Assembly (NCBI RefSeq): GCF_039545135.1
Contig: NZ_BAABRU010000004.1
Coordinates: 258,427-322,426 of the forward strand
Length of the DNA: 64,000 bases
Source of the DNA: Herpetosiphon gulosus
Lineage (GTDB): Bacteria > Chloroflexota > Chloroflexia > Chloroflexales > Herpetosiphonaceae
Direction of reading: 5' to 3'
The translations under genes were made by a program, and so were the position numbers. The first letter of the stretch is position 1. Every line of letters starts with the position of its first letter. The notes under the pieces were generated by a model that had not been told where the DNA came from, made no database searches, and saw nothing but the letters and a program-made list of their open reading frames with translations. Below, piece after piece: positions 8,434 through 31,993 of this stretch.

Positions 8434-9008
8434 GGCGCAACCACACTTTCCAGAATCGCCAGTTGCTGCTTGGTTAGGCCTGCCACCACCCGCGTCATAC
8501 CCTGCCCATGCACCCCAACGCTATCGATCATGCCGCCCGTGGTGCGCGAGCGATAGAGATTAATCGTCAGCTGGAGCGCCACATCGACGACCGCAGGCGG
8601 CACGGCCCCATAGCCCCAGATCGCCGTAATCCGATAGAGCGCATGATCCGTCCAGCTCGTGGCCCAATAGCCATCCCACACCGCGTCCGCATGCAGCACC
8701 CCACGTGCATCTTCGAGCCATGCATCAGCGGCGAGTGGTTGCCATGCGCTATGCAGCCGTTGCTCAATCAGGCTAATACTGCCAATCACATGCGCGTCGA
8801 GCGTCAAGGTCGGCAGCGGCAACCCCGTGACCACGCGCATCGTGGCCACCGGATTGGGCACAAACTCAAAGGTCGGATCGTGCAGCAGCGCCCGTAAGGC
8901 CGAGCGCACAATATCCGAGGCCCGCACCACATAGGGTTCAATGAGGGCGGGATCGGCGGGGATATCCTCAGACTGGGCTTGGACTTCGGCAACGCTCACA
9001 TACAGCAT
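8421..9008 (-). CDS. phage head-tail connector/adaptor-like protein, 195 aa
   Basis: Position downstream of the capsid gene, similar to gp6-like head-tail adaptors. No strong motif. Confidence 0.35.
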   Translation of the reverse strand: MLYVSVAEVQAQSEDIPADPALIEPYVVRASDIVRSALRALLHDPTFEFVPNPVATMRVVTGLPLPTLTLDAHVIGSISLIEQRLHSAWQPLAADAWLEDARGVLHADAVWDGYWATSWTDHALYRITAIWGYGAVPPAVVDVALQLTINLYRSRTTGGMIDSVGVHGQGMTRVVAGLTKQQLAILESVVAPWRA

Positions 9009-9014
9009 GGCGAC

Positions 9015-9170
9015 TTATCCTTCCTTGGCGGGGGCTTTCTTGACTGGCTTTGCGTCAGCCTCATCCAGCGGCGCATCGACGACGCGATAGGCCGGATCAG
9101 CGGCGAGACGATCAGCCAGCTCGCCATCGACTTCCCATGTCACACCCGTTTCGGTATTTAAGACCCACAT
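9015..9170 (-). CDS. small hypothetical phage protein, 51 aa (not in the ORF track)
   Basis: Hand translation gives MWVLNTETGVTWEVDGELADRLAADPAYRVVDAPLDEADAKPVKKAPAKEG with an AAGGAG Shine-Dalgarno 7 nt upstream. It fills the gap between the capsid and connector genes. Confidence 0.35.
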   Translation of the reverse strand: MWVLNTETGVTWEVDGELADRLAADPAYRVVDAPLDEADAKPVKKAPAKEG

Positions 9171-9206
9171 ACAGCGCTCCTTTTGCTCGGCAATCGCCCA
9201 TCTGTT

Positions 9207-10058
9207 CTAACTCCGATTCGCGGTCATCACGGCGAAGGCGGTAGGCCGCACAACCTTCGCCCCATAGACATGCAAGCCCTTCACGGCATCGGCAAAGCGC
9301 TTTTCCGGGCGATAGCCTTCGACCTTGACGATTTGCTCGGCAAACGAGATCGCCATGGGGTGACCCGCCATAATCTTGTATTTGGCTCCCGCCACGTTGG
9401 GCACACTATTCGACTTCAACACGCTAAACCCTGCTGCTGTGCCAATCTGGCCATTGCGCAGCACCTGATCGCTGCTCGCCGAGCCAACGCCGACGAAGCG
9501 ATCATCTTTGAGCAACAAGCCGTGAAACCATGGCGGCACGATCGTCCAGCGCCCTTCGGATGGCACATTGGCCTCATCGAGCAGCGTGCCCAAATCGACC
9601 AAGTAATCGTAGGCATTGGCACTGGTGGGGGTCACGGGCGTGGTGTCATTGCCAATCACATTGCCAGCAGCCACCCCCGTATACAGCGAGGCGATAAAGC
9701 CATCACTGACATCGCGCAGGCCATAGCTGGCTTCTTTCATGGCTTCATCCATCACGCTGGGCTTTTGTTGGGCACGGTCGATATCATCGACTTGGAAGTT
9801 GAAGTATTTGGCTTGGTTGATCAACAAGGTCATTTGGGCATCGGTCAAGGTTTCGGGGTCACCAATGTTGGTATTCTTGGTGTAATTGCCAATCGTGACT
9901 GGGCCAATGCTGTTAATCTTGACGGTATCGCCCGCATCGCGAATCTCGCCCTCATACTCACGATTGACCACGCCTGCTTGCCCATACACATGGGCACGAT
10001 GCAGATTCGAGAGAATCCGCGCACTCCAGACGACAGGAATGAAATTGTTCAGCGCCAT
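9207..10058 (-). CDS. phage major capsid protein, 283 aa
   Basis: N-terminal FIPVVWSARIL...NREYEGEI...GDTVKI pattern typical of a major capsid (coat) family. It sits directly after a scaffold-like gene and downstream of the portal. Confidence 0.65.
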   Translation of the reverse strand: MALNNFIPVVWSARILSNLHRAHVYGQAGVVNREYEGEIRDAGDTVKINSIGPVTIGNYTKNTNIGDPETLTDAQMTLLINQAKYFNFQVDDIDRAQQKPSVMDEAMKEASYGLRDVSDGFIASLYTGVAAGNVIGNDTTPVTPTSANAYDYLVDLGTLLDEANVPSEGRWTIVPPWFHGLLLKDDRFVGVGSASSDQVLRNGQIGTAAGFSVLKSNSVPNVAGAKYKIMAGHPMAISFAEQIVKVEGYRPEKRFADAVKGLHVYGAKVVRPTAFAVMTANRS

Positions 10059-10097
10059 ACCGGTTCCTTTCTGGCACGTCGTGCGTGCGGATAATGC

Positions 10098-10685
10098 TTA
10101 GCCTTGGCGGGCTAAGTAGGCTTGGATTGCATCCCAGTTGGTATTGATTTGCTCGGGAGTCATCCGTTCAATGGCCGCTTTGGTCAGCGCTGGTGGTCGC
10201 GCCGGATTGGCCGGACTGGTTCCGATTGGTGCAGGCGCAGCCGTTCCACCAGCAGTTGACTTGGCCAAGTAGGGATAGGTCGTGAGCAAGCTGGCAATCG
10301 CGGCATCGAGCGGCTTGGGGTGGCCCTGCTCGTCAAACTCCAGCGTAACCAAGCGCCCGAGCAACCCCGCATCCAGCCCATGGGCCGCAGCGGTTTGCTC
10401 AATCAGCCGAGCGCCGCGCTCGCTGCGCAACGCCGCCCGATCGGCTTCGAGTTGGGTTTCCAACGTGGCCAAGCGTGCCTGCAAATCAGGGATTCCGGCA
10501 TCGGCAGCAGGCTGCGCAACAGGTGGCACAGCAGCGGGTGGTGCAGCTGGCGGCGCAGGCGGAACAACGGGCACAGCAGGCGCGGGACTTGGTGGTGCAG
10601 CAGGTGGTGTGGGATCACCACCACTGCCCCCACCATCATCGGCGCTCAGTAGGCGTTTCGGCATCAGGATTCGAATCATCAGCAT
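10098..10685 (-). CDS. phage scaffolding-like protein
   Basis: Pro/Ala-rich N-terminus followed by a coiled-coil segment (LQARLATLETQLEADRAAL). Located between the portal and capsid genes. Confidence 0.4.
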   Translation of the reverse strand: MLMIRILMPKRLLSADDGGGSGGDPTPPAAPPSPAPAVPVVPPAPPAAPPAAVPPVAQPAADAGIPDLQARLATLETQLEADRAALRSERGARLIEQTAAAHGLDAGLLGRLVTLEFDEQGHPKPLDAAIASLLTTYPYLAKSTAGGTAAPAPIGTSPANPARPPALTKAAIERMTPEQINTNWDAIQAYLARQG

Positions 10686-12009
10686 CTCCTTTGGCTGTCA
10701 GAGGGTCGTGATCGGGCGGCGTTTCGGCCTGCCGTTGTTCGCGTTCATGGGCAGGGTCATAGCCCAGTTGGGTCAAGATGGTGGCTTCACTCACGCCGAG
10801 CGTGCGATCGGCCTGTGCGACGGCGCGTTCGGCCTGTGGGTCAGTCGGCAGCATCGAATCCCACACCACCGTGGTGGTGGTCTCGGGAAAGCCGCCAATC
10901 ATCAGCAAGCGGCGATTGAGTTCACTCAGGAAATCGCCATACAGCATGCGCTTTTGCACGGTCTTTTGCAGCAAGGGGCCATAGAGGATTTGCAAGGCTA
11001 AGCCGCTCAGGTTGCCGAGATCTTCGACTTTGCCTGTGGCAATCTCCGGCGTTTGGGCCACCTCGTGAATACTGCTCTTGATCCGGCTGTGGTGGTCGAG
11101 ACTGGCCGCTAACTCGCTCTGCATCTCAACAATGCTCAGGTCGGCATTGGGCGGAATAAAGACCGTGCGGTCGCGGCCATGCTTGAGCTGCGCGGGGTCC
11201 ATCCCCTTGGCCACGGTGAGCGGCTGGGCATAGAAGCGCACAATCCGTTGTTGGTTGGATAAGGTGAAATCGCCTGCATTGACCAAGGCAATCAGGTCGG
11301 GCGTGATATCCGCCTCACCCCAGTATTCGTTGGGGGCAGCGAGGTTTTGGCTATCGACGATCGGCGGGAAGGGATAGGGCCACGGCGCTTCATGCAGCGT
11401 CTCAAAGGCCTGTTTGTCGGGCTGGCTCCGTTGGTCAAGAATGCGCCAGCCGGTATCGGTGCGCTCGATGCGTTGGCGAATACTGACGAGCACTTCGCGG
11501 TTGCCCTGCCATTCGTAGGCACTGTAGTCAATCAGGTAGCATTCCACCCGATCCAGATCGTCCGCCGCCCAGCGCACGGTCACGGTCGCCGGATCGAGAA
11601 TCACGATGCGCGGCAGCGGCTGCTCGGGATAGATCCGCGCAAAGATGTGGCCACACAGGCTGCCATTGATGCCTTGTTTGTAGAGCCACGTCATCTTTTT
11701 GGCCGCATTCCAGATTCGATCAAGATACTGGATGCGGGGGTCGTCTGGTGGAGCATCGGGCACGCTAAACGCCACCTGATCACCAAACAAGAACGAGACC
11801 GAGGTCTGCACAATCAGCTTAATCAGATTGACCCGTACATTGTCGTTGGGTCGTCCCGCTTCGATCGGCAGCGGGGGCGTATCCTGCTTGCGATAGGCTT
11901 CCCACGCCGCGCGAAACTGCTGCAAGCGCTGAAAATCATCGGCCAAGCGCTGCCCATGCAGGTGCTGGCTAATGATGCTACTGGTGGCGGTTGGTGGAAA
12001 CATACCCAT
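10636..12009 (-). CDS. phage portal protein
   Basis: About 458 aa directly downstream of the terminase large subunit. The chosen start ATG (MGMFPPTATS...) lies 13 nt after the terminase stop and is preceded by AGGA. The ORF track extends further to 12216, overlapping the terminase. Confidence 0.65.
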   Translation of the reverse strand: MGMFPPTATSSIISQHLHGQRLADDFQRLQQFRAAWEAYRKQDTPPLPIEAGRPNDNVRVNLIKLIVQTSVSFLFGDQVAFSVPDAPPDDPRIQYLDRIWNAAKKMTWLYKQGINGSLCGHIFARIYPEQPLPRIVILDPATVTVRWAADDLDRVECYLIDYSAYEWQGNREVLVSIRQRIERTDTGWRILDQRSQPDKQAFETLHEAPWPYPFPPIVDSQNLAAPNEYWGEADITPDLIALVNAGDFTLSNQQRIVRFYAQPLTVAKGMDPAQLKHGRDRTVFIPPNADLSIVEMQSELAASLDHHSRIKSSIHEVAQTPEIATGKVEDLGNLSGLALQILYGPLLQKTVQKRMLYGDFLSELNRRLLMIGGFPETTTTVVWDSMLPTDPQAERAVAQADRTLGVSEATILTQLGYDPAHEREQRQAETPPDHDPLTAKGDADDSNPDAETPTERR

Positions 12010-12022
12010 TCCTGCTGCTTTC

Positions 12023-13555
12023 TTACCAAAGACTTGGGCCAAAACTGACGATCGGGGCGGGCGCATAGGCCAAATTGACCGCATCCATGCCATCGGGACT
12101 GCGCTTAATCCGTTTCTTGGTGTCGGCTTTTGGCTCGACCACCCGCCGACCCTGACTATCTTGCTTCCACGTGGGAGCCATCGCTTGGCGACGCAGCTCG
12201 CGGCGTGTTTCCGCATCGAGCGCGACGAAGCTCAGGCGTTGCTCGATCGCCCGTTCGGCCACACTGAACCATAATTCGCTGCGGCGATTGGGATATTTCT
12301 CAGGATCGTAGGCTGTGCGTGCCCCACTGACTCCGAGGAAGGTATAGCCGTCGGCGAGATCGACCACGCCGCCGCCGATGCCGTCATCGTCGATTTTGAT
12401 CGCCACGGCGCGGCCATCGACCCCACACCGTCGTCCATATTCGTTGGCCAACTGCTTCAAGCGGCCTGCGGTTTCGACCGTGCTCCAGCCGTTGGCTGCT
12501 TCGTGGTAGAGACTGTGGCCACCACGGCGCACATGAATCTCGGTAAAGTCATCGCCATAGCGGGCCACATCACAGCCCAGCTCGCACGGCTCGTCACTCG
12601 CAGGCAACAACAGGCTTTCTGCCACCTGAAACGCGCCATCGCTCCAGACATTGTTGGTCGCCTGCGATGGCCAACGGCCCAACAATCGCGCTTCGGCGAT
12701 CGGTCCAGGCCGATACCAGGCATCGCGCCAATGAATATCCGTGGCCCGTTTTGGTTCTTCGGGGCTGAGTGCGCGACACCACTTTTTGAGCAAGGTATCG
12801 ACGCGGCTCAGGCGAATCGCCGAGGGAAACGGCGGCGGCAAGCCCTGCAATTCGGCCAGAATGTTGGGATGCTCGAGCACGCTCATCGAAATGACATGCC
12901 AGCCCCCACTCAATTCCTCACCATAGGCTTGCGAGCTGGTATCGGTCGGATTGAAAATCGCCAGCCATGCGCCGCCCTCGTTGAACATCGATTCGGCGGT
13001 TTCCCAAAACACGCTAGCCACGCCCACCGCCTCGTCAAAGATGAACAGGGTATGCGGCGAGTGATGGCCTTGAAACGAATCGCCATCTTTGGCCGTGAAG
13101 CCATGGGCGAAATGGTCGGGTGTACTCTCCAAGCGCGGCGACTTGGGGCCAGTAAAGCCCGCGCGTCCACGCCGCTGCATGCGCACTTCCTTCCAAAGCA
13201 GGTCACGCACTTGGCGATCGGTGGGGGCGGTTGTCAGCACCAGCCCCGGGTCAAAACTGTCGTACCACCAGTTGACTAAGCCGCCGCCAAGGTGGGTTTT
13301 GCCAACCTTATGGCAGGCTTTGACCAACGTGCGATACGGCGGCGTGAGCAACGACCGCGCGATCAGTTCCTGCTTTGACCACCAGACTTCCCCTAACACC
13401 TCCCGCGCATAGGCCACCGGATCATGGGCATAGGGCAAGACCGTGCGTTTCCCGCCAACGGCAAGGCTAAGATCGGAAAACAGGGAACTCCAGAGCGTGT
13501 CGCGCTTGGAGGGTAGCGAGGATGCGTTGTTTGGTCGATTCATCTGCCTCTCCAA
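12023..13555 (-). CDS. phage terminase large subunit
   Basis: 510 aa with an N-terminal ATPase Walker-A-like motif (VKACHKVGKTH) and a C-terminal nuclease-like region with conserved acidic residues. Followed by the portal gene. Confidence 0.75.
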   Translation of the reverse strand: MERQMNRPNNASSLPSKRDTLWSSLFSDLSLAVGGKRTVLPYAHDPVAYAREVLGEVWWSKQELIARSLLTPPYRTLVKACHKVGKTHLGGGLVNWWYDSFDPGLVLTTAPTDRQVRDLLWKEVRMQRRGRAGFTGPKSPRLESTPDHFAHGFTAKDGDSFQGHHSPHTLFIFDEAVGVASVFWETAESMFNEGGAWLAIFNPTDTSSQAYGEELSGGWHVISMSVLEHPNILAELQGLPPPFPSAIRLSRVDTLLKKWCRALSPEEPKRATDIHWRDAWYRPGPIAEARLLGRWPSQATNNVWSDGAFQVAESLLLPASDEPCELGCDVARYGDDFTEIHVRRGGHSLYHEAANGWSTVETAGRLKQLANEYGRRCGVDGRAVAIKIDDDGIGGGVVDLADGYTFLGVSGARTAYDPEKYPNRRSELWFSVAERAIEQRLSFVALDAETRRELRRQAMAPTWKQDSQGRRVVEPKADTKKRIKRSPDGMDAVNLAYAPAPIVSFGPSLW

Positions 13556-13994
13556 TCGCCGTCAGCACCGCCTGTTGGAAGCGGCGCACTTCATCAACAT
13601 CGACCAACAACTTGAGAATGGCCAAACTGGTTTTGATGTGTTCGCGCACTTCACGTAGCGCGGCCACATGCACGGCAATCGGCGTGCGGCTGGTGTACTC
13701 GCCATCGACTTCGACAATGCCCATTTCGAGCTTGCTCACCAGATCGAGCGCCCGTTGATAGTTGTCACTGAGGGCCGCACGACTATCCCACAGCGACGAG
13801 CCAGCCCGCTCGACGACCGCCGCATGCTGCATGAGCGTCGGCGCGGTCGCCGTCGGCAGTGATTCGAAAAAGCGCTGCACCGTGCTGACCGACAAGCCGA
13901 AGTCCCGCGCGATCTGGCGTTGGCTCGATCCCGCTTTGGCAGCGGCTAAAAGCTGGTTGGCAAGCTCATCGGTAATCGTGCTTTTGCGTCCCAT
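13467..13994 (-). CDS. terminase small subunit-like HTH protein
   Basis: N-terminal helix-turn-helix (SQRQIARDFGLSVSTVQRF) immediately upstream of the large terminase. Confidence 0.45.
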   Translation of the reverse strand: MGRKSTITDELANQLLAAAKAGSSQRQIARDFGLSVSTVQRFFESLPTATAPTLMQHAAVVERAGSSLWDSRAALSDNYQRALDLVSKLEMGIVEVDGEYTSRTPIAVHVAALREVREHIKTSLAILKLLVDVDEVRRFQQAVLTAIGEADESTKQRILATLQARHALEFPVFRS

Positions 13995-14046
13995 GGCAGC
14001 CTCAGGTGATTCGCTAGTGATTCGAAATTGATTCGAAATGCATGAA

Positions 14047-14328
14047 TTAGTGATTCGAAATGGGTGACGCAGGCAACAGCGCCACCAACCGCAGCAGCCG
14101 TTGGCGCACGGCCTGCACCTCGGTCGCCAGCGTCTCGACCTGCTGGAGCACCGCTTCGAGTTGCGCTCGTGTGACCGTGGCCACCGGACGGTCTCCGCGT
14201 TTTTTGAGCAAGCGATGGGCTTGGTCTTTACTCAGGCCCGCCATCCGCCCCGCTGCACTCGCATTGCCACTGGCATCGTAGGCCTGCCAAAACAGCGTGA
14301 TTTGGTCAGCCGGAAGGCGACGGGGCAT
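14047..14328 (-). CDS. small HTH DNA-binding protein
   Basis: Probable start MPRRLPADQITLF.... Motif GRMAGLSKDQAHRLLKKRG. The ORF track gives a longer form ending at 14400. Confidence 0.35.
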   Translation of the reverse strand: MPRRLPADQITLFWQAYDASGNASAAGRMAGLSKDQAHRLLKKRGDRPVATVTRAQLEAVLQQVETLATEVQAVRQRLLRLVALLPASPISNH

Positions 14329-14439
14329 AGCGAACACTCCTTGAAATTGATGCGGTGGGGCGGGGGAACACAGCCATTCTGCTGCTCTAGCCCCGCCCAC
14401 GGCGCAGCCGCACCGCCGCTGATCGTCGCCAAGGCGACA

Positions 14440-15192
14440 TTAGGGGTGGGTTTTCCACCACTGTTTCAACCGTTCCACGTCTTCGGTAAACAACCATTCG
14501 ATGCTGCCGTGGGGCGTAAAGCGTGCGCCGCTGCGCTCGAAGAGTTGATACTGATGGCCATCAGGATGGCGAAAGAAGGGAGTCAGGGCATAGCCCGGGG
14601 CAAACTGCGTGGGATGCCACAGACCACCACTGCTTTGCCATGCCACTTTGAGTTCAAGCGCCACCGGATAGGTTCCCGCAGGTTGGACTGGGGCGATCAG
14701 GGCCGCTCGCCAGTCATAGAAGCTGCGATCCGTCCAGTCGGAAGGATCGGGCTTGCGTCCCGCAGGGAGCGCCACAAAGCGATGGGTTTCAATCGCGCCG
14801 AGCACGATCGCCCAGTCCGCCATCAGGCGTTGGCAGAGCCATGCGAGGGCCGCGCGTTGCTCGGGAGTCCATGCCTCGCCAACGGCGTGATGGCATTCGA
14901 TGCCAATCGAGCGACTGTTGATCCAGTCATCCTTGGCGGCTCCGGCATGCCATGCGCGATAGATCGGCGGCAGAATCTCGGCAATCTGGCCGCGTTGGCC
15001 AACCAAATAATGCGCACCCACGCCGCTACTGGCTTCCAAGTAGTTGGCTTCGGCTTCAAAGCTACTGCCCCGATTGCCATTGGTCGTGTGAATCACGACG
15101 GAGCTGGGTTTGATGCCTTTGGGGCGATAATCCCAGCCCGTGCCAACCGGGCGGTGATGTTTGCGCCAGCGCAGATCGATCACGAAGGTCAT
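14440..15192 (-). CDS. N-acetylmuramoyl-L-alanine amidase (Amidase_2/PGRP-type endolysin)
   Basis: VVIHTTNGNRGSSFEAEANYL...AWHAGA... pattern of zinc amidase_2 endolysins, downstream of holin-like genes. Confidence 0.75.
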   Translation of the reverse strand: MTFVIDLRWRKHHRPVGTGWDYRPKGIKPSSVVIHTTNGNRGSSFEAEANYLEASSGVGAHYLVGQRGQIAEILPPIYRAWHAGAAKDDWINSRSIGIECHHAVGEAWTPEQRAALAWLCQRLMADWAIVLGAIETHRFVALPAGRKPDPSDWTDRSFYDWRAALIAPVQPAGTYPVALELKVAWQSSGGLWHPTQFAPGYALTPFFRHPDGHQYQLFERSGARFTPHGSIEWLFTEDVERLKQWWKTHP

Positions 15193-15557
15193 GACGTGGG
15201 TGCTCCAAAATGCTTCTGATATTCGGCATGCAACAGGTCAACAAGAAACTTGGGATCAAAGCGCAGGCCCAGCTCGTTCAGATAGCGACTTGCCGCCTCC
15301 ACGCCCTTGGCTTCGATTTGGTGACGCACCCCATCCGGTGTAATGCCATAGCTTTGGGCCACCCGCAGGCCGACCTTGATCGCGCTATAGAGGGTGTCCC
15401 GCTCTTCGCGACTGAGTAGCGCGGTGGCCTTATCTTCCAGCGCCCGCGCGATGCGGCGACCGATCCGCGCGGCGACGGCGAGCGCCAGCGGCACAAGCAC
15501 GGCGAGCAGCAGCTGCACAAGGGTACTCAACAAACTGGCGGAAACAGTGGTGGTCAT
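15189..15557 (-). CDS. holin-like membrane protein
   Basis: 122 aa with an N-terminal hydrophobic helix (LLSTLVQLLLAVLVPLALAVAA); 4-nt overlap with the amidase gene. Confidence 0.45.
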   Translation of the reverse strand: MTTTVSASLLSTLVQLLLAVLVPLALAVAARIGRRIARALEDKATALLSREERDTLYSAIKVGLRVAQSYGITPDGVRHQIEAKGVEAASRYLNELGLRFDPKFLVDLLHAEYQKHFGAPTS

Positions 15558-15916
15558 ACGGTCTCTCCTTTTTTGCTGGGGCGTGGCCGCGTGCTCGGAT
15601 TGGGACTGGGGCGCGGCTGCCGGAAAAAGCCAAACAACTCGGCCAACAACTGGGTATGGACTTCTTGCCCTTCGCGCAGGCGGCTCATTTCGTCCGACAC
15701 CACCTCCAGTGTGTGCTTCAGTCCCGTCATGGCGGCAGTGTTGTCGATAAAGGCGGTCAAGACCTTGGCTTCGGCTTGGGCTTCGGCCTTGCGGCGTTGG
15801 GCCACAAGGTCAGGACGCAGGCGTTCTTTGAGTAACGGCCAGACTTCGCGGTAGAGGAACCACCCCACCAGAAAGAGGCTGGGGCCATACACTTTGAGCA
15901 AGTCTCCTTCGGTCAT
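15554..15916 (-). CDS. small membrane protein (holin/antiholin-like)
   Basis: Starts MTEGDLLKVYGPSLFLVGWFLY...; one transmembrane segment followed by a coiled tail. Overlaps the holin gene. Confidence 0.35.
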   Translation of the reverse strand: MTEGDLLKVYGPSLFLVGWFLYREVWPLLKERLRPDLVAQRRKAEAQAEAKVLTAFIDNTAAMTGLKHTLEVVSDEMSRLREGQEVHTQLLAELFGFFRQPRPSPNPSTRPRPSKKGETV

Positions 15917-16033
15917 GGGCGGTTCCTCCAACGGGCATAAAAAAAGCGGCCACCAACCCTCAGCTGAGGGTTGATAGCCGCGTCTCGTAACTACTGACTA
16001 TCCGAATGATTCGATTGTTGCTGCTATGGCACT

Positions 16034-16471
16034 CTAGGCCGCAGCGGATGGACGACGAAGGACTTTGGGCACATCGATGGGTGCAACAATGGGCGCATGA
16101 TACAGGGTCAGGGCTGCTTCGGTATAGCGATGGCGACTAAAGGTCATCTCGCCTTCGATATACAGTGTGCCGCTGCCGCTCAGGAATTTCAGGGCCAGCG
16201 CATCAACGCGGGATTCGAACTCGTGATTGCTTTCGCCAGGGCGAATCCGATAAGTAAAGCGTGCGCCGCACAGCCGTCGCTGCGGAGATGTGCTGGGTAA
16301 TGCTGCGTTCGGATCGGGTGGTGTTCCCCACACAAAGTACTTGGTGCCAAATTCCGTTGCATCCGCATCCGGATCGCCATAGATGGTGCGTAGCGTCTCT
16401 GGAAGCATATCCCCTCCTCGGTGGGGAAATAAAAAACGCCCCGATGTGTTGCACACATCGTAGGCGGTCAT
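16034..16471 (-). CDS. hypothetical protein (prophage cargo)
   Basis: 145-aa ORF between the lysis cassette and the AT-rich defence island. No motif; the start is uncertain. Confidence 0.3.
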   Translation of the reverse strand: MTAYDVCNTSGRFLFPHRGGDMLPETLRTIYGDPDADATEFGTKYFVWGTPPDPNAALPSTSPQRRLCGARFTYRIRPGESNHEFESRVDALALKFLSGSGTLYIEGEMTFSRHRYTEAALTLYHAPIVAPIDVPKVLRRPSAAA

Positions 16472-16532
16472 CCGTCCTTACGGTACGAATACTATACCAG
16501 TAGTCATAAATAGTTGTCAAGTATCATTAAGT

Positions 16533-17495
16533 TCATGGGTTCAAGATAAAATTTACAACATCTACTGGAAATTCTTCTTGATCTTGAAGATAATAAGTTA
16601 TCCATGTGCTAATACTTTGCTTAAATCTGAGATCCTTTTTTGGCATCAAAGCCTTGTTCGCTTCCGTCTGAGGACTTTCTAAACAAACATTATAGACACA
16701 TTGTGCAAATATAACCCATAGTAAATTAATACCTACGTGTCCATGACAAATCCACCTTAATACTGACGGATCTGTATTATGTACAATATTTTGATATTTA
16801 TCAAAAGAATCTTTTATTTTCTGAATATTTTCAATCGAAAATCCGTTGTTTCTTAAATTTTCCACAAAAATTTCCATATTAAATGATATCTTATCATCTG
16901 ATATATTAAAACAATTAAATGTTATTTGATTAGAAGTTCTATCTATATTATCTGATTCACAACAAACAAAACTTAAAATACAAACATTTACCAATATTGA
17001 AGCGAAAATTTTATTGAATTTAATTGAAGCATCATATCTATATCTAGTATCAGTTATATCTTGAAATACTGATTTTAATATTCTTATATTAAATAGATAA
17101 TTTTCAATAGAATGACCTCTAGACCAAATAATTATACCGTCTCTGTAATGTTTATTAATTTCATCAGTAATCTTTGAGTCAATAGTAAAATTCCTGAATT
17201 CCCTATCAACAAATCCTAAGACTTTCCCTGAACTAATCTTCTCTTCTATTAACTTACAGGCTAATTCAACTTTCATCCTATTACCGTGGACTTCATTTCC
17301 TGAGTTAGAGAACATTTCAGCAGTATCAATAAATATATCTTCTGCTATTGATTCATCTTCTTGGATTTCAGATATGGTATGAATTATCTTCTTAAATGCA
17401 TTCCAATCACTACTACCTTCTACTAGTAAATGTTTTTTATAAGAACTAAACTTTATATAAACAGGATACTCATTTATTTTCATGGGTATTGTCAT
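16533..17495 (-). CDS. AriB-like DUF4435/TOPRIM nuclease (PARIS effector candidate), 320 aa
   Basis: N-terminal HLLVEGSSD motif (the VEGxxD of OLD-type TOPRIM/DUF4435) and a downstream acidic cluster (GFVDREF). About 28 percent GC; 46 nt downstream of an ABC-ATPase gene on the same strand. Confidence 0.6.
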   Translation of the reverse strand: MTIPMKINEYPVYIKFSSYKKHLLVEGSSDWNAFKKIIHTISEIQEDESIAEDIFIDTAEMFSNSGNEVHGNRMKVELACKLIEEKISSGKVLGFVDREFRNFTIDSKITDEINKHYRDGIIIWSRGHSIENYLFNIRILKSVFQDITDTRYRYDASIKFNKIFASILVNVCILSFVCCESDNIDRTSNQITFNCFNISDDKISFNMEIFVENLRNNGFSIENIQKIKDSFDKYQNIVHNTDPSVLRWICHGHVGINLLWVIFAQCVYNVCLESPQTEANKALMPKKDLRFKQSISTWITYYLQDQEEFPVDVVNFILNP

Positions 17496-17541
17496 ATTTT
17501 ATTCCTTTATGGTATTAATTATAAGATTTAAATTTTCAATC

Positions 17542-18882
17542 TTATAATGAGAAGCTAATCTGTCCATGATTTTTATCATATGGTATTTTCTTTATTTCAT
17601 TCATATTATCTATATAGTCTGAAGCTATAAAAGGTGAATGTGTACAAACTATTATTTGTTTATCTCCCATTAACTTTGATATTTTATGTAATAATAATCT
17701 CTGCCAATCAACATGAAGAGATATTTCTGGTTCATCAATAAGGACAACATTCTGTTTGCTCATATAAGTTGTTGCATAAAGAAGTGTTATTATTTGCCTT
17801 TCTCCAGATGATAGTGATTGCAATGGTGCATATGTTTTGTCATTAAATGATGCAACAACTGAGAAATCTATATCATCGTCAATTATCTCAATTTTTTTAT
17901 CTTCCAGAAAGTTATTTACTGCATTTAAATATATTTCTATTTCTTTTAGTGATTTTTTTTGAATATATGCCCTCTCTTTTAATATATCTCTATAAACATT
18001 AAGAATTTTAGCAGTCATAACCTTAGAATCATAATCTACTTGTACTTCTTGTACTTCATTAACCAATCTACGTAATCTCATAATAAAACTATCTGTACTA
18101 TTATGAGGAGTTTGAATAAATGAATCTTCGATACTATCAGAAATTTTCTTTATTTCTTCAAGAATTTCACTTGGTTCTTCTTGTACTTGTAAATGATCTT
18201 TAGATAAAGTGTTAAATATTTCTAAAAAAGCTTGTGTTAATAACTTTTGTTCAGTATCAGCAATTTTTATTCTAGCTCTATATATCTCATAATCTAATCT
18301 CGCCTCTATTTCTATTGGGGAGGGGTAGTATATTTTTGGTACAAATTCACCAAAAGAACTACGTGCAAACTCTGTTAATGTATCTTTTTGCTCTAATCTT
18401 TTTTTACTAACAATTGATCGAGATATTAATCTTACATAATCTGATTTTCTTTTTTTTGTATTTGAGACAGGATTATTCTTACTTATCCATGCCTCAATCA
18501 TTGTTCTAAATGCTGGAAAATAAGCAATGCTTAATAAAGGTGAATCTAATGATGAATTTTTTGGTATATATGAATCAAATTTCTGTGAAGAAAATGATAG
18601 AGTGTTTTTTTCATTTTTATATACTTTTATAATATTTTCATCTGATAAGAATATTATCCTAATTGTTTCATCATTACTCAACAAAACTTTTATTTCTTTG
18701 AAGTCAATAAAACGAAATCTATCAAATTCTTCATTAATTAAGTTTGTTAAGATATGTAATATTGTAGTTTTACCTGCACCATTTTTTCCATATAAAATGT
18801 TAATCCCATCATCAAAGTTTTGAATAATATTATATCTATTATGAATACCATAAGCTTCTAAACGCTTGATATATGTAGACAT
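17542..18882 (-). CDS. AriA-like ABC ATPase (PARIS sensor candidate), 446 aa
   Basis: Walker A (LYGKNGAGKTTILH), signature-like LSSGERQ, Walker B (VVLIDEPEISLH) and H-loop (VCTHSP). Very AT-rich (about 27 percent GC). Confidence 0.65.
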   Translation of the reverse strand: MSTYIKRLEAYGIHNRYNIIQNFDDGINILYGKNGAGKTTILHILTNLINEEFDRFRFIDFKEIKVLLSNDETIRIIFLSDENIIKVYKNEKNTLSFSSQKFDSYIPKNSSLDSPLLSIAYFPAFRTMIEAWISKNNPVSNTKKRKSDYVRLISRSIVSKKRLEQKDTLTEFARSSFGEFVPKIYYPSPIEIEARLDYEIYRARIKIADTEQKLLTQAFLEIFNTLSKDHLQVQEEPSEILEEIKKISDSIEDSFIQTPHNSTDSFIMRLRRLVNEVQEVQVDYDSKVMTAKILNVYRDILKERAYIQKKSLKEIEIYLNAVNNFLEDKKIEIIDDDIDFSVVASFNDKTYAPLQSLSSGERQIITLLYATTYMSKQNVVLIDEPEISLHVDWQRLLLHKISKLMGDKQIIVCTHSPFIASDYIDNMNEIKKIPYDKNHGQISFSL

Positions 18883-18935
18883 AGATTTTATTCCTTATCT
18901 AATAAATTGAACTAACCTTATCCTATCATAGGTTT

Positions 18936-19958
18936 CTAGTCTTTTATAGCGACAAATGGTACGTGCAAGGCATCAGCCGCAGCTTGTTTGGCTCGCTCAC
19001 CCCGCCGATCATAGCGGCTGGTGGTGTTGGCGTTGCTGTGGCCAGCCAGCCGAGCAACGGTCAAGACATCGGTTCCGGCATCGAGTTGATCACTAATAAA
19101 CGTTCGTCGAATATCGTGTGGGCTGAAATGCCGCACATTCGCTTCTTTGCCACGTCGCTGGCACAAGATATAAATCGCCTGATCACTGAGGCGCTCATAC
19201 ATCTGGCCTGCCACACCACCAGCTTGTAACCGCCAAAACAGTGGCCCTGATTCATCGCCACGCACCGCCAGCCACTCGTCGAGCGCATCACGCGCACCAC
19301 CCCGCACATACGCCGTCCGTACTTTATTGCCCTTCCCGCGAATCGTCAGCATCGCTGTTTCAGGATTGAAGTCGGCCAGATCGAGGTTGACGATCTCCGC
19401 CCGACGCAAACCGCCAGCGGCATAGGCCAGTGCCAAAATTGCTGCATCACGCCGCCCAACGGGGGATGTATCAGCAGCACATGCGGCAAATAAGGCGCGG
19501 AGTTCGGCAGCGGTGAGCGATCGGCCCGCAGCGGCATCGGGTGCGTTCCCTCTGACCGTTTTGAGATCAACCGCTCGCGTGTAGTCTTCCCCTGTCATCA
19601 AGCCCATACGCCACGCCATCTTCAGCACCCCGCGCAAGGCCGAGAGCATGAGGTTGGCGGTGGACGCTGATTTGCTGCTGGCGAGTTTGGCCCACAAAGC
19701 TTGGGTATGTTCAACCCGCAGCTGTGACCATGGAACCGCATGCGCATCGGCAAAGCCCATGATTGTCGCGAGGCTATGCAACTGCTTTTGCATCGTGCGT
19801 TGGCTATTGGCACTTTGCAGACTGGCGATATAGGCAATGAAAGGGTTGGTAGTTGATTGGATTGCGGTTGGCGTGGTTGCTACAAGGGTGGTTAATGTGG
19901 TTGAAAAATCATCGTGCATGCTCGACTCTCCAGCGGTTTGTATAATGTGCATTATCAT
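18936..19958 (-). CDS. tyrosine recombinase/phage integrase
   Basis: C-terminal catalytic signature: ...R..., HDIRRTF (HxxR) and AGHSNANTTSRYDRR (nucleophilic Tyr). 340 aa. Confidence 0.8.
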   Translation of the reverse strand: MIMHIIQTAGESSMHDDFSTTLTTLVATTPTAIQSTTNPFIAYIASLQSANSQRTMQKQLHSLATIMGFADAHAVPWSQLRVEHTQALWAKLASSKSASTANLMLSALRGVLKMAWRMGLMTGEDYTRAVDLKTVRGNAPDAAAGRSLTAAELRALFAACAADTSPVGRRDAAILALAYAAGGLRRAEIVNLDLADFNPETAMLTIRGKGNKVRTAYVRGGARDALDEWLAVRGDESGPLFWRLQAGGVAGQMYERLSDQAIYILCQRRGKEANVRHFSPHDIRRTFISDQLDAGTDVLTVARLAGHSNANTTSRYDRRGERAKQAAADALHVPFVAIKD

Positions 19959-20028
19959 AACCGTTTCGCGCTAAAAAAACATCCGCCAACAGCCTGATTT
20001 GAACTGCTGGCGGGTCATCCATCATCGA

Positions 20029-22164: not shown

Positions 22165-22209
22165 GTACTATGTTGAATGTAGTAAAAAATTAGTAGGTTG
22201 GAATACTTT

Positions 22210-22431
22210 ATGATTTACCTAAGAATTGGCGAGCTGGTGGATGAGCGAGGATGGAATATTCAACGATTCGCGGCAGAAGCTAATCTTGCTTATGGCACAG
22301 CATATGGTTTATACAAGGGTAGGGTAAATAGGATCGACTTAACCACACTTGACAGCATTTGCGAAGCGTTGGGTATCGAGCCAGGTGAAGTATTTGTACG
22401 CGAGCCAAGAACGAAGGAGCCTGCAGAGTAG
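22210..22431 (+). CDS. XRE-family helix-turn-helix transcriptional regulator (HTH1), 73 aa
   Basis: MIYLRIGELVDERGWNIQRFAAEANLAYGTAYGLYKG... Cro/C1-type HTH. A paralog of the gene at 24347. Confidence 0.6.
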   Translation: MIYLRIGELVDERGWNIQRFAAEANLAYGTAYGLYKGRVNRIDLTTLDSICEALGIEPGEVFVREPRTKEPAE

Positions 22432-22532
22432 CAGAAGATTGAGAGATGATAACTAGAATCAAAGGATTATCAATCTAAGATCTTGCGAACCAAGTAATCG
22501 AAAGTTTCAATAATTAGACCTTGGAGGAGTAT

Positions 22533-24266
22533 ATGCTTATTGACGGAATTGCGCTATCTAACTATAGGAGTTTTGGAGAAGAACTACAGTTTATCGGTCC
22601 ATTTCAAAAAATGAACATTATTGTAGGACAAAACAATGTAGGGAAGTCTAATATAATTTTATTTATTAAAGATCATTATAGAGCATTTGCAAATGCAATA
22701 AAAAATGATATGTCAAAAGAAATAAAGTTTACTGATATAGATTCAAATAATAGATCAGGTAATAAAAATATGCGTTTCGGATTCGGATTGAATTTATCTA
22801 AAGATAAATTCAATCATTACACTAATAGACTTTCTTTAGGCGAAAATGAAAAAAATACAATATCTATATTAGAAAATATAATAAAATCCGATCTTTTCAC
22901 TTACAATGATGAAATTTCATGGGTTATATTTGAATATGAAAATAATCATTTTAAGATTATCAATAAAGATTTCAGCTACTATCAAAAAATTAATCCTTCT
23001 CTTTGGAATCATCTGTGGAATAGATTTACAAAATTCAATGGTAGCACTTATGATATATGGATAAAAGAAACAATATCGATATTAAATAAATCAATTATTA
23101 ATAATATACCCAAAATTGTATTTATTCCCGCTATTAGACAAATAAATAAAGATATACAAAGCAGTTATGAATATGGTGGTATTGGGATAATAAAACGTTT
23201 ATCTGAATTACAAAACCCTTTATTAAATGAACAAGGTAATATAGATATTTTCCGAAACATTAATGAATTTTTACGTGAAATTACTAATAATAAAAATGCA
23301 TCCATCGAAATACCACATGACCGTAGTGATATTTATGTTCGTATTGATAATATACCTTTGCCAATAAATTCACTAGGTACCGGAATTCATGAAGTTATTA
23401 TTCTCGCAATTGCGGCAACTACGTTAGAAAATACTGTTATATGTATAGAAGAACCAGAGATACATTTACATCCTGTATTGCAACGTAAACTAATACACTA
23501 TCTGTATACAAAAACTAATAATCAGTATTTTATTACTACACATTCAGCACACGTTGTTGATGCTGAAAAAGCTGCGATTTTTCATGTAAGATTAGTTGAT
23601 GGATATTCTAAAGTTGAATCAGTCAAGGATGCTCCTGAATTAGCATCTGTTTGTTATGATCTTGGTTATCGACCTTCAGATATTTTGCAATCTAACTGTA
23701 TCATCTGGGTCGAAGGGCCATCTGATAGGATATATCTTAATTATTGGATTAATTTTCTAGACTCCTCTCTAATAGAAGGATTACATTACTCAATCATGTT
23801 TTATGGAGGAAAGCTATTAAGTCACCTATCAGGAAATGATCCTGACATAGAAGAGTTTATATCATTACGTCGTATGAATCGTTTCATATCAATCATAATA
23901 GATAGTGATAAAAATAATCGACAGAAACCTATTAGTTCAACAAAAAAGCGAATTCAAATAGAATTTGATAAAGGGCCTGGATTTGCGTGGATAACTCAGG
24001 GCCGTGAAATTGAAAATTATATTGCAGATGATATCTATCAAGCGATTTTAAAAGCCAATTATCCAAAATTTAATTCTACATCTTCTATGGGGCAATATGA
24101 TAATCGATTGAAATTCACATCCATTGACGGTAAACCTTCAACAACAATCAAAAAAGTTGAATTTGCTCAAAAAATTATACCTTATCCAGTGAATCTTGAT
24201 GTACTAGACTTAAAGAAACAGATGAAAAGATTATTGGCATTCATTAAGGAGGCAAATGATTTATAG
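22533..24266 (+). CDS. OLD-family nuclease (fused ABC ATPase plus TOPRIM), about 577 aa
   Basis: Walker A (IVGQNNVGKSNII), Walker B (ICIEEPEIHLHP), H-loop (ITTHSAHV). TOPRIM motifs WVEGPSD and IIIDSDKNN. About 30 percent GC. Start taken at the ATG preceded by GGAGGA (the ORF track begins at an upstream TTG). Confidence 0.75.
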   Translation: MLIDGIALSNYRSFGEELQFIGPFQKMNIIVGQNNVGKSNIILFIKDHYRAFANAIKNDMSKEIKFTDIDSNNRSGNKNMRFGFGLNLSKDKFNHYTNRLSLGENEKNTISILENIIKSDLFTYNDEISWVIFEYENNHFKIINKDFSYYQKINPSLWNHLWNRFTKFNGSTYDIWIKETISILNKSIINNIPKIVFIPAIRQINKDIQSSYEYGGIGIIKRLSELQNPLLNEQGNIDIFRNINEFLREITNNKNASIEIPHDRSDIYVRIDNIPLPINSLGTGIHEVIILAIAATTLENTVICIEEPEIHLHPVLQRKLIHYLYTKTNNQYFITTHSAHVVDAEKAAIFHVRLVDGYSKVESVKDAPELASVCYDLGYRPSDILQSNCIIWVEGPSDRIYLNYWINFLDSSLIEGLHYSIMFYGGKLLSHLSGNDPDIEEFISLRRMNRFISIIIDSDKNNRQKPISSTKKRIQIEFDKGPGFAWITQGREIENYIADDIYQAILKANYPKFNSTSSMGQYDNRLKFTSIDGKPSTTIKKVEFAQKIIPYPVNLDVLDLKKQMKRLLAFIKEANDL

Positions 24267-24346: not shown

Positions 24347-24589
24347 ATGGTTATTCGGTTCAAAATCCAAGAAATTGCAGAGCAAAAAGGTATTGTTACT
24401 GCGGCTGAGTTAGCTCGAGAAGCTAAGATTGGCCAAGCAACAGCCTACTCGCTCTGGAATAACAACAGATCCGATGCTAATTATTCAACACTGCTTGTAA
24501 TTGGCAAAGTTCTTGGTGTAAAACCTGATGACTTGGTAGAAGTAAATGAAGACGAAAAAATAGAACTAGCTCATCTTACAGCAGCCTAA
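24347..24589 (+). CDS. XRE-family helix-turn-helix transcriptional regulator (HTH2), 80 aa
   Basis: MVIRFKIQEIAEQKGIVTAAELAREAKIGQATAYSLWNN...; same architecture as HTH1. Confidence 0.6.
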   Translation: MVIRFKIQEIAEQKGIVTAAELAREAKIGQATAYSLWNNNRSDANYSTLLVIGKVLGVKPDDLVEVNEDEKIELAHLTAA

Positions 24590-25092: not shown

Positions 25093-25234
25093 TTATATGG
25101 TTGTTTGTTGGCGATTTTGCCGTTCAACAGTGCTGAAGTATACTCCGCTTTGGCCGTTTTGTCAAACGCTGCTTGACGAATTCAAAAATCGATTATAATG
25201 ATACATGGTATCAATAAATAAGGATTAAACTCAA

Positions 25235-26443
25235 ATGTTGAAGTTGCCGCTTCCTGTAACTGTGCTTTCTGGTTTTCTCGGTGCGGGAAAAACCACCTTA
25301 TTAAATCATATTTTAGCTAATCGTGAAGGTTTGCGTGTCGCCGTCATCGTCAATGATATGAGCGAAGTTAATATCGATGCGCAGTTGGTCGGCCAAGGTG
25401 AGCTTGCGCTCAATCGGGTTGAAGAACAATTGATCGAGCTGAGCAATGGTTGTATTTGCTGTACCTTGCGTGAAGATTTGTTGCTTGAGGTCGGTAAGCT
25501 GGCCCGCGCTGGCCGTTTCGATTATCTGCTGATCGAATCGACTGGCATTTCAGAGCCATTACCCGTCGCCGAAACTTTTACCTTCGAAGATGAATCGGGC
25601 CTCAGTTTGGGCGAAATTGCCCAGCTTGATACGATGGTGACAGTGGTTGATGCACTTAATTTCTTGCACGATTTCAATGCTGCCCACGATTTGCGCGACC
25701 GTAATTTGGCGATTGACGAAGCTGACGAGCGCACACTGGTTGATTTATTGATTGATCAGATTGAGTTTTGCAATGTGTTGATTATTAATAAAACTGATTT
25801 GATTAGTGCTGAACAATTAACCCATTTGCATGAATTGCTGAATAAACTCAATCCACAGGCCAAGATTCTCCATGCGCAACATGGTCAAGTGCCACTCAAC
25901 GAAATTCTGAATACTGGCTTATTTGATTTTGATCAAGCGAGTGCTGCACCTGGTTGGCTGGCTGAATTACGTGGTGAACACACGCCGGAAACTGAGGAAT
26001 ATGGCATTCGCAGTTGGGTCTATCGCGCTCGGCGGCCATTTGCAGCCCAGCGTTTTTGGGAGTTTGTGAATAACGATTGGCCTGGAGTGATTCGTGCCAA
26101 AGGCTTCTTTTGGGTGATTTCGCAGCCGACTACCGCTGGATTACTCTCGCAAGCAGGCCAAAATTGCCGCGTTGAGCCAGCCGGCGAGTGGTGGGCCGAT
26201 AGCGATCAGAGCGAGTGGCCTGAAACTACCGAGGAACGCGCCGAAATCGAAGCTTTGTGGGATGAACAGGTTGGAGATCGTCGCCAAGAATTAGTCTTTA
26301 TCGGCCAAGATTTTGATCAACAATGGTTGCAACAAGCTTTGGATGCATGTTTGGTCAGCGATCACGAATGGCAGCAACCAGTCGCAACGTGGCAAAGCGC
26401 TGATCCTTTTGCTGGTTGGAATGAGCAAGAAGCTGTAGCGTAA
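25235..26443 (+). CDS. CobW/COG0523 family GTPase (putative zinc metallochaperone)
   Basis: [10 protein letters not shown]-loop, the GCICCTL (CxCC) metal motif, and a CobW C-terminal domain. Confidence 0.75.
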
Positions 26444-26490
26444 GTTTTGATCCACGAAGGACACGAAGAACCACGAAGAATCACAAAGCT

Positions 26491-26572
26491 GAGGCTATAG
26501 ACTATAGGCTCTGGGCTATTGGGAGTTATTGATATACCACAAAACCTTCCGATAGCCCAAAGCCTATAGCTC
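26491..26572. repeat. palindromic (hairpin-forming) intergenic element GAGGCTATAGACTATAGGCTCTGGGCTATTGG ... CCGATAGCCCAAAGCCTATAGCTC
   Basis: The two arms are imperfect reverse complements of each other. A related element is at about 34525..34575. Confidence 0.5.
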
Positions 26573-26764
26573 TGATCTCTAAACCCTCATTTCATCTCTC
26601 ATAATTCATCCTTATCCCCACCTGTTTGGCTTATCAAGAGATTGTGATAAAATAAACGCGCCCGCGACGGCACCGATTCGAATGACATTGCACCGCCGCT
26701 TGATGCATAGTGGCGGTTTTGGCGTGAACGCCATAGGAGTCACGCACCGAGAAAGGAATCGCCA

Positions 26765-27271
26765 ATGCTGAAAGGAACGATGGCCTATTTTAAGGGTCTC
26801 AAAACCACGGCGAAATATCTCTTCAAAAAGCCTGTGACGGTTGAATATCCCGAGGTCAAACGGCCTGTCCGCGAGCGCTTCCGTGGTCGGCATGAACTGA
26901 AGCGTTTTGCCAATGGTCTAGAGCGGTGTATCGGTTGTTCGCTATGTGCTGCTGCTTGTCCAGCTGACGCAATTTATGTCGTGCCTGGCCAGAATGATCC
27001 GGCGAACCCACGCTCAGCAGGCGAACGCCATGCGGCTGTTTATGAAATCAACATGTTGCGTTGTATTTTCTGTGGCTACTGCGAAGATGCATGCCCTACC
27101 AATGCAATTGTGCTTGAACACCAATATGAATTGGCCTTCTACGACCGCCGTGCCTCGATCTATACCCAAGATATGTTGCTGGTGCCGGTCGATAAAGGCC
27201 ACGGCGAAGTGCCACCAGTCTTGCAACAAACTGGCAAACAACTTAACCCACCGGCCCAAATAGACCTGTAA
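26765..27271 (+). CDS. nuoI: NADH-quinone oxidoreductase subunit I
   Basis: Two 4Fe-4S ferredoxin motifs: CIGCSLCAAACP and CIFCGYCEDACP. Confidence 0.85.
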   Translation: MLKGTMAYFKGLKTTAKYLFKKPVTVEYPEVKRPVRERFRGRHELKRFANGLERCIGCSLCAAACPADAIYVVPGQNDPANPRSAGERHAAVYEINMLRCIFCGYCEDACPTNAIVLEHQYELAFYDRRASIYTQDMLLVPVDKGHGEVPPVLQQTGKQLNPPAQIDL

Positions 27272-27451
27272 AAGGTATGAAGTATGAAGGATGAAGTATG
27301 AAGGATGGGTTAATTCAGGCTGAATTTCATTGCTCAGCACCCAAATCTTCTGCTTTATCGCTAGGGGTAGCCAACGGTACAAAGTGTGAAGGGCGTGCCA
27401 AGGGGGTTTGAATTTCATCCCTCATCCTTCATCCTTTATCTGGGAGTGTCC

Positions 27452-28275: not shown

Positions 28276-28317
28276 GCAACGGCCTTGCACCTTGCCGAAG
28301 TGTCTACTGGAGAACTT

Positions 28318-31975: not shown

Positions 31976-31993
31976 GACGGAGCGTGAGTTCGA

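Follow-up and report, generated by a model that had tools for sequence, protein, structure and literature searches.

A PARIS defense cassette as AT-rich cargo of a phage-derived element in Herpetosiphon gulosus

What is the role of a sharply AT-rich pair of genes that sits between the integrase and the lysis genes of a phage-derived element in Herpetosiphon gulosus, a predatory filamentous soil bacterium of the Chloroflexota? We analyzed a 64,000-nucleotide (nt) stretch of contig NZ_BAABRU010000004.1 (positions 258,427 to 322,426 of the forward strand; hereafter the window, in whose coordinates all unlabeled positions are given). An initial annotation, made from the letters alone, had read the two genes as a PARIS-like pair of an AriA ATPase and an AriB TOPRIM protein. 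We found that the two-gene island is a PARIS (phage anti-restriction-induced system) cassette, a reading on which PADLOC models, sequence matches in the PDB and predicted folds all agree. Furthermore, we consider it very likely that this cassette, ariA followed by ariB, is foreign cargo in the phage-derived element and that it acts by the mechanism of its homologs. The features of the island are as follows:

16521..18935: AT-rich cargo island, a segment absent from three sister genomes, as based on composition, blastn break points and junction alignments
17542..18882, minus strand: ariA, encoding a 446-amino-acid (aa) ABC/SMC-like ATPase, the PARIS sensor and scaffold subunit
17496..17541, minus strand: ariA-ariB spacer of 46 nt, with the ribosome-binding context AAGGAATAAAATATG, read from the sequence
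16533..17495, minus strand: ariB, encoding a 320-aa TOPRIM (DUF4435-type) nuclease, the effector subunit

The open reading frames (ORFs) bear out that the two genes are co-oriented and separated by 46 nt, and place both on the minus strand. Both frames are intact and share the ribosome-binding context AAGGAATAAAAT, which precedes ariA at 18883..18900; the AAGGA sites of both genes were rated good. In NCBI, the identical H. gulosus proteins are named 'AAA family ATPase' and 'DUF4435 domain-containing protein'. The sharp compositional island between the lysis genes and the integrase was also present as first described, with a G+C content (GC) of 26.5% (26.2% for ariA and 27.6% for ariB) instead of the 27-28% originally given. 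GC drops from 0.55-0.65 to 0.20-0.31 across 16500-18900, with a transition within about 150 nt on each side, a change far beyond chance. The phage-like part at 1..16400 has a GC of 59.7% and the host part at 25100..64000 one of 49.7%; Herpetosiphon genomes have about 50.8% GC (PMC6210107), a value that the window matches from about 25100 onward. At third codon positions, GC (GC3) is 0.14-0.19 in ariA and ariB versus 0.55-0.74 in neighboring genes.

Profile searches, which the initial annotation had proposed as a check, showed that AAA_15 and AAA_21 match the ATPase (90.6 and 73.5 bits) and that the PADLOC models for AriA and AriB match the pair. The ATPase thereby passes its half of the PARIS detection rule of Rousset 2022, which combines AAA_15 at >=32 bits or AAA_21 at >=27 bits with DUF4435 at >=27 bits. 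The best PADLOC model for the 446-aa protein was AriA (2.7e-32). A phmmer search against the PDB returned E. coli AriA (8ux9_B) with E=4.8e-74 over residues 5-430 at about 42% identity, the non-ABC middle of the protein included; the runner-up family, PtuA, reached 5e-7. A structural model of the protein, with a predicted local distance difference test score (pLDDT) of 86, gave the same result in Foldseek, where the best 16 PDB matches were all AriA chains (E about 1e-35). Its template modeling (TM) scores against 8v46_B were 0.78/0.86, while retron PtuA, Rad50 and SMC heads matched at E of about 1e-11 with TM scores <=0.46. Between the N- and C-terminal ATPase lobes, the model contains long helices at residues 148-177, 189-227, 237-252, 263-279 and 284-323. 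This predicted coiled-coil insertion at about 148-323 would split the ABC head by a short four-helix bundle, which is the AriA fold.

The ATPase motifs that had been noted in the translation are present: Walker A GKNGAGKT at residues 32-39, the signature LSSGERQ at 357-363, Walker B VVLIDEPE at 378-385 and the H-loop CTHS at 413-416. K38, D383/E384, LSSGERQ and H415 are invariant in 70 homologs. In a HMMER alignment, K38, D383/E384 and H415 correspond to E. coli K39, D392/E393 and H424. In E. coli, K39 of Walker A and D392/E393 of Walker B are required, and R168 and R172 line the radial pores (PMC11464382, PMC10802264); the equivalents of these two arginines, R151 and R155, are conserved as well.

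For the 320-aa protein, the only PADLOC models below E 0.01 were AriB, a model of 236 positions that matched at 1.6e-18 (65.7 bits), and fused AriAB. Against the PDB, phmmer found E. coli AriB (8ux9_A) with E=1.8e-24 over residues 8-280 at about 31% identity, and nothing else was significant. An AlphaFold model built with 69 homologs (pLDDT 95.2) aligned with 8ux9_A over its full length (Foldseek E=2e-17, TM scores 0.85/0.89, root-mean-square deviation 2.5 Å over 322 columns). Two AriB chains were the sole matches at E<=0.001, and the next match had E=0.17; the matches to OLD proteins were weak and partial (6p74, E=3). The model predicts a TOPRIM domain followed by a C-terminal helical domain.

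The motif HLLVEGSSD, quoted by the initial annotation, lies at AriB residues 22-30. By alignment, the predicted metal-binding residues E26, D30, D97, E99 and E131 correspond to E26, D30, D88, E90 and E122 of E. coli AriB, which bind two metals and of which E26A and E90A each abolish defense (PMC11464382, PMC10802264). An alignment of 70 homologs shows no variation at E26, G27, D30, D97 and R98 and at least 90% conservation at E99 and E131; all invariants of the family are present in the H. gulosus protein. Thus, every mutationally tested E. coli catalytic residue is conserved in this pair, and gene order and adjacency are those of PARIS. The initial annotation had named as contrary outcomes a partner without a TOPRIM fold or acidic residues and an ATPase that matches SMC, RecF or AbiEii families only; we found a predicted TOPRIM fold, the acidic set and an ATPase whose closest family is AriA.

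Two differences from E. coli that had been proposed for the H. gulosus pair did not hold up. The gene sizes had been thought to differ, but the E. coli chains have 464 aa (AriA) and 308-316 aa (AriB, tagged), compared with 446 and 320 aa here. The DRE sequence had been taken for a departure from the second acidic motif of the E. coli system. However, E. coli AriB itself reads CDREFREF, with D88-R89-E90, and its D88 and E90 are metal ligands, the latter essential for defense. DRE is therefore the canonical PARIS motif, consistent with an invariant D97-R98 and a nearly invariant E99 among the 70 homologs.

The location of the cassette is defined by the following features, which include its two borders:

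18936..19958, minus strand: left border of the slot; tyrosine recombinase/integrase of 340 aa, its gene immediately upstream of ariA
16491..16520, minus strand: promoter-like site TTGACA-18-TATAGT with an extended -10 TG; right border of the slot
16442..16460, minus strand: hairpin followed by a T-run, about 30 nt 3' of the promoter-like site, from the terminator scan and alignment
14440..15192, minus strand: amidase endolysin, with two small ORFs upstream

Comparison of four Herpetosiphon genomes showed that the cassette occupies a defense hotspot, as the initial annotation had supposed from its position. The neighborhood is syntenic in the three sister species H. geysericola, H. llansteffanensis and H. 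aurantiacus (host genes, two tRNA-Asn genes, small ORFs, integrase and late genes), with DNA identities of 86-94%. The integrase, which matches Pfam Phage_integrase (8.6e-25) and Phage_int_SAM_1 as well as the PHROG integrase family (1.5e-37), is 94% identical at the amino acid level in all three. Similarity in blastn breaks at 18952, within the last integrase codons, and at 16521; the C-terminal integrase tails (last few codons) vary between the four species, and four-species identity resumes exactly at the -35 box of the promoter-like site. This site is the best in the region in a promoter scan (11 of 12 matches) and is identical in the four species. Between these borders, whose flanks are 88-94% identical, the four genomes carry the following cargo:

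H. gulosus, 2.4 kb, 26.5% GC: the PARIS cassette
H. geysericola, 2.4 kb, 24% GC: another PARIS cassette, distinct from that of H. gulosus and likewise AT-rich
H. llansteffanensis, 1 kb, 22% GC: a single ORF of 295 aa, encoded on the opposite strand, without a family match
H. aurantiacus, 3.5 kb, 40-42% GC: two proteins, one of 535 aa that is rich in repeats and one of 442 aa with a Calx-beta domain

Since the flanks are conserved and the cargo differs in each species, the position is a real cargo hotspot. The PARIS cassette of H. geysericola DSM 7119 (L002:11105-13349) is intact and matches the PADLOC models for AriA (9.7e-27) and AriB (1.7e-10). Like that of H. gulosus, it is AT-rich and lies between the integrase 3' end and the conserved promoter-like site; its AriB carries the TOPRIM motifs HILVEGNSD, IDREF and GHSIENY. 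However, the two AriA proteins are only 38% and the two AriB proteins 34% identical, no closer than either is to E. coli or cyanobacterial homologs. The H. geysericola genes overlap, in contrast to the 46-nt gap in H. gulosus, and at the DNA level the two cassettes share a single 241-nt patch at 70% identity and almost nothing else. As the distance between the two pairs is as great as that to E. coli PARIS but their flanks are nearly identical, they represent separate acquisitions and not divergence in place.

How such cargo was exchanged was addressed at its ends. Searches for direct or inverted repeats flanking the island (of a transposon, an integron attC or an att site) returned short, chance-level repeats in AT-rich DNA only, and junction alignments of the four species contained no shared motif at the cargo ends. 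Insertion in the manner of an integron or a transposon is therefore unsupported. We infer that homologous recombination in the conserved flanks accounts most simply for the exchange: the cassette would most likely have arrived from a related element by recombination across the integrase 3' end and the late-type promoter, out of a donor pool that was presumably very AT-rich.

The cargo of the two other species received no defense assignment from PADLOC or Pfam. The H. llansteffanensis ORF (L003:11038-11925, minus strand) encodes a 295-aa protein with a hydrophobic N-terminus and no Pfam or PADLOC match; because of its position in the slot, it is a candidate single-gene defense or exclusion protein. 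The cargo of H. aurantiacus DSM 785 (L004:11102-14499) consists of two convergent genes for secreted-looking proteins, of which the 442-aa protein has a Calx-beta domain and weak matches of carbohydrate-binding type and the 535-aa protein has no family match. This slot is therefore not restricted to recognizable defense genes.

The E. coli B185 PARIS system suggests how the H. gulosus cassette may work. By analogy, AriA, an SMC/Rad50-like ABC ATPase with a short coiled-coil, would form a homohexamer in which as many as three monomers of AriB are kept inactive. ATP-dependent binding of a protein from the infecting phage to AriA would free AriB, which would then dimerize. The two-metal TOPRIM site of AriB would then cut particular host tRNAs in the anticodon stem-loop, and the resulting halt of translation would abort the infection. 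Cleavage of tRNA by activated AriB and phage protection are known for E. coli PARIS alone (PMC11464382, PMC12409363). For the Herpetosiphon pair, the assembly of an AriA hexamer with AriB, the trigger, the tRNA substrate, expression and protection would follow by homology.

Several observations weigh against a cassette that is a member of the PARIS family in every respect and active in its present host. Claimed as a TOPRIM/DUF4435 protein, the partner kept the first designation through its predicted fold, its acidic residues and the PADLOC AriB match, but the current Pfam-A model of DUF4435 (PF14491) did not match it at E<=1. A precomputed PF14491 match exists in about one tenth of AriB homologs; with only this minority matching, the current Pfam model is insensitive for the AriB clade, and we read the missing match as low model sensitivity and not as evidence against membership. 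Moreover, several contact residues of E. coli AriB are replaced: R28 and R31, which form salt bridges to AriA, by S28 and W31; K60 and K64, at the anticodon loop, by N67 and H70; R236, at the D-loop, by H251; and F137, at the dimer interface, by D146. The contacts of K60, K64, R28 and R236 with the anticodon loop and the D-loop come from an AlphaFold 3 (AF3) model of the E. coli system (PMC12409363). In AriA, the central-pore residue R119 of E. coli aligns with N90, at the edge of the alignment. The AriB contact positions are variable across the 70 homologs (consensus 'x'), so their changes do not bear on membership; with these residues replaced, interface details, substrate and trigger may differ from E. 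coli. It is a real possibility, although not the reading that we favor, that the architecture is that of PARIS and its output is another one, with AriB cutting different tRNAs or RNA and AriA responding to a trigger unrelated to Ocr, Ptr1 or Ptr2. The replaced tRNA-contact residues and the low identity of AriB, at most 42% to anything in 5.8 billion proteins, speak for such a shift. Conversely, the fold is conserved as a whole, as is the catalytic site, nothing indicates a substrate other than tRNA, and an indel in the alignment with E. coli AriB around residues 60-70 makes the residue equivalences near these positions uncertain.

Expression provides the other points against an active PARIS cassette. 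A promoter scan found no convincing promoter of its own in the 53-nt gap between the integrase gene and ariA, and GC3 values of 0.14-0.19 in a host of 50% GC could limit expression. Together with the lack of close relatives, these features would fit a recent AT-rich cassette that is silent or decaying, unexpressed through codon mismatch or silencing and without current function. We regard this as improbable, as both frames are intact with all invariant residues and good AAGGA sites, and as the second AT-rich PARIS cassette, in H. geysericola, is likewise intact. A terminator-like hairpin was predicted before the integrase gene (20013..19983) and none between this gene and ariA; read-through from the integrase gene is therefore possible, and transcription of ariAB may come from such read-through or from weak AT-rich promoters. 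It is similarly doubtful that the pair is mainly a toxin-antitoxin addiction module, with AriB in the role of toxin and AriA in that of antitoxin and chaperone, which stabilizes the element instead of sensing phages. E. coli PARIS does behave like a type II toxin-antitoxin pair (Deep et al., PMC10802264), and the element has been kept at the same site in four species; but sister species keep it with non-PARIS cargo or no comparable pair, so that its retention is independent of PARIS, and the same proteins give phage defense in E. coli. By far the least probable alternative is a different ABC-ATPase pair or a split OLD/Gabija-type nuclease (Septu PtuAB, AbiL, class 1/2 OLD or AbiEii-type). The ABC core that these families have in common does give the ATPase matches to the PtuA, mad3, GajA and AAA_21 ('AbiEii') models, but these matches are at least 15 orders of magnitude weaker than that to AriA and cover this core only, in line with the gap to PtuA in the PDB search and in TM score. 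The partner matches AriB and AriAB models only, with neither an HNH domain nor a GajB-type helicase, and AbiEii reached E=0.019. We rejected OLD/Gabija GajA because the genes are two separate ORFs without a helicase neighbor and the GajA and Old models are weaker and limited to the ABC core, and Septu (PtuA/PtuB) because the partner is a TOPRIM AriB without an HNH match.

Having retained the PARIS assignment, we compared the cassette with its relatives and with known systems. Among 5.8 billion proteins, the closest AriA homolog was 56% identical and the closest AriB homolog 42% over a partial sequence, the others being 30-44% identical. Named homologs were often cyanobacterial (Microcoleus, Pannus, Crocosphaera, Spirulina, Pseudanabaena) or from Dehalococcoidia. 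The gene of the 56%-identical AriA homolog is followed by one for a 321-aa protein, the same arrangement as in H. gulosus, and several AriA and AriB matches share an identical longest-contig size, which we counted as recurring pairing. Five IMG/VR viral contigs encode AriB relatives; in the contig checked (L006), ORFs of 471 and 311 aa abut. These viral-contig cassettes have 41-44% GC versus 54-59% in their flanks. A lower GC than in the flanks is therefore general for such cassettes, with Herpetosiphon as an extreme example.

With the PARIS system of E. coli B185 (PDB 8UX9, 8V45-8V49; Rousset 2022, Burman 2024, Deep 2024), the H. gulosus cassette shares gene order, co-orientation, similar sizes and full-length homology. 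It also shares, as predicted, the coiled-coil bundle of AriA and the helical domain at the C-terminus of AriB, together with the catalytic and radial-pore residues, and a phage-related carrier in a variable hotspot. It differs in the residues of AriB that contact AriA, tRNA and the other AriB protomer, and in its extremely low GC of 26.5%. The E. coli system has enterobacterial hosts and is carried by a P2 phage or a P4 satellite, whereas the carrier here is a siphovirus-like element next to tRNA-Asn genes in a member of the Chloroflexota. Similarly, in the P2/P4 hotspots described by Rousset 2022, a fixed position with conserved phage flanks holds variable, often defensive cargo that includes PARIS, as is the case here; in Herpetosiphon, a host of another clade, the cargo is flanked by the stop codon of an integrase gene and by a late-type promoter and is not always recognizably defensive. 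Proteins of the OLD family (P2 Old, class 1 OLD, Gabija GajA) and fused AriAB use the same ABC ATPase and TOPRIM modules with the acidic set ExxxD...DxE/DxD...E. However, their modules are fused, whereas H. gulosus PARIS consists of two polypeptides, of which AriB has a C-terminal helical domain of its own. Deep et al. (PMC10802264) describe AriB as closer to the M5 RNase than to OLD DNases.

In the phage collection, a tblastn search with AriB found no match, and at the DNA level the island matched only Yersinia phage vB_YenM_31.17, over 113 nt. This P2-like phage (L001 2836-4985) encodes a 423-aa ABC ATPase and a 292-aa hypothetical protein between its integrase and its CI repressor. We dropped the pair as a reference, since its ATPase shares the ABC core only and the partner has no PDB relative. 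The 292-aa protein has weak local similarity to AriB around a C-terminal 'CxGH' motif, and the pair may be distantly PARIS-like or a different ATPase-partner system.

PARIS is found in about 5% of genomes and is often phage-borne (Rousset 2022), so that its presence in H. gulosus would not surprise a specialist; it is no new kind of system, and PADLOC or DefenseFinder would call it here automatically. What this locus adds is the phylum, the extreme composition and a hotspot defined to the nucleotide with two independent PARIS acquisitions. It provides a clear example of PARIS from the Chloroflexota, in which phage-defense biology is almost uncharacterized, and extends the hotspot principle, as known from P2 phages and P4 satellites, to a siphovirus-like element unrelated to these. 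The presence of two highly divergent PARIS cassettes in the same slot of sister species should be handy for comparing trigger and tRNA specificity.

The carrier itself confirms that the island lies inside a prophage-type element. Positions 1 to about 22100 are phage-like, with 60% GC, and host genes (cobW, nuo/mrp-type genes and secA) follow from about 25100. On the minus strand, the integrase and the island are followed by a 145-aa ORF, two small ORFs and the amidase endolysin, and then by a helix-turn-helix (HTH) small-terminase-like protein, a 510-aa ORF, portal, scaffold, capsid and tail-tube genes and a 1136-aa ORF. These genes form a siphovirus-type late region, which makes the description as a phage-derived element correct. 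A megablast comparison of the phage-like part with 50,697 phage records returned no match, and a segment of the host part had none among E. coli genomes.

In each of the four Herpetosiphon species sequenced, the phage-like element lies at one and the same position beside the tRNA-Asn genes. DNA identity between species is 88-94% for the element versus 86-93% for the neighboring host genes, and as its divergence is about the same as that of these genes, the carrier may be an old, possibly defective or domesticated element and not a recent prophage. The stretch from the tRNA genes to the late promoter measures about 5 kb and has no recognizable replication genes; the far end of the element lies beyond the window.

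A second AT-rich island of about 29% GC spans 22100-24900. Its plus-strand ORF at 22521..24266 encodes a protein of 581 aa, in which an ABC ATPase (AAA_15, AAA_21) precedes the OLD-type TOPRIM motifs WVEGPSD, IIDSD and GREIENY, and the best PADLOC models for this protein were GajA, ATPase-Toprim_I-B, Old and AriAB; it has no helicase partner. The gene lies 3.6 kb from the PARIS cassette, between Cro/C1-type HTH genes at 22198..22431 and 24347..24589 and beside the tRNA-Asn genes. One element therefore carries both a fused (OLD-like) and a split ATPase-TOPRIM system. This second slot varies as well: H. geysericola and H. llansteffanensis have a short version, and in H. aurantiacus it contains another AT-rich insert, of 1.7 kb. 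A broader scenario, which we find rather unlikely as a whole, is that an old element was fixed at tRNA-Asn before the four species split and has since served as a two-slot dock that swaps AT-rich cassettes (22-29% GC). In this scenario, PARIS would have been installed at least twice, and H. gulosus PARIS, with its altered tRNA-contact residues, would have another target or trigger.

The tRNA-Asn(GTT) genes are in tandem on the minus strand, at 24921-24996 and 25017-25092. Between the two copies, only the anticodon stem, through compensatory changes (27-43 G-C to A-U and 28-42 U-G to U-A), and positions 26, 44 and 45 differ. As E. coli AriB has tRNA-Asn(GUU) among its targets, as a secondary one, we considered the pair as PARIS-resistant decoys; this idea was rejected, because both copies are present in the four species with or without PARIS.

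Beyond the right border of the slot, the hairpin with its T-run at 16442..16460 is kept in the four species, with changes confined to the loop; it stands at the beginning of the conserved late/lysis transcription unit, outside PARIS. A search with Rfam found five tRNAs only and no known RNA at the promoter-hairpin block. This block of about 90 nt (16442-16520, minus strand) is almost 100% conserved in the four species, compared with 88-94% in the surrounding genes. It overlaps the 5' end of the ORF at 16471..16034 and lies just upstream of the lysis and packaging genes. In its layout, the conserved block resembles a lambdoid late promoter with an early terminator, the target of Q-type antitermination, or a small RNA.

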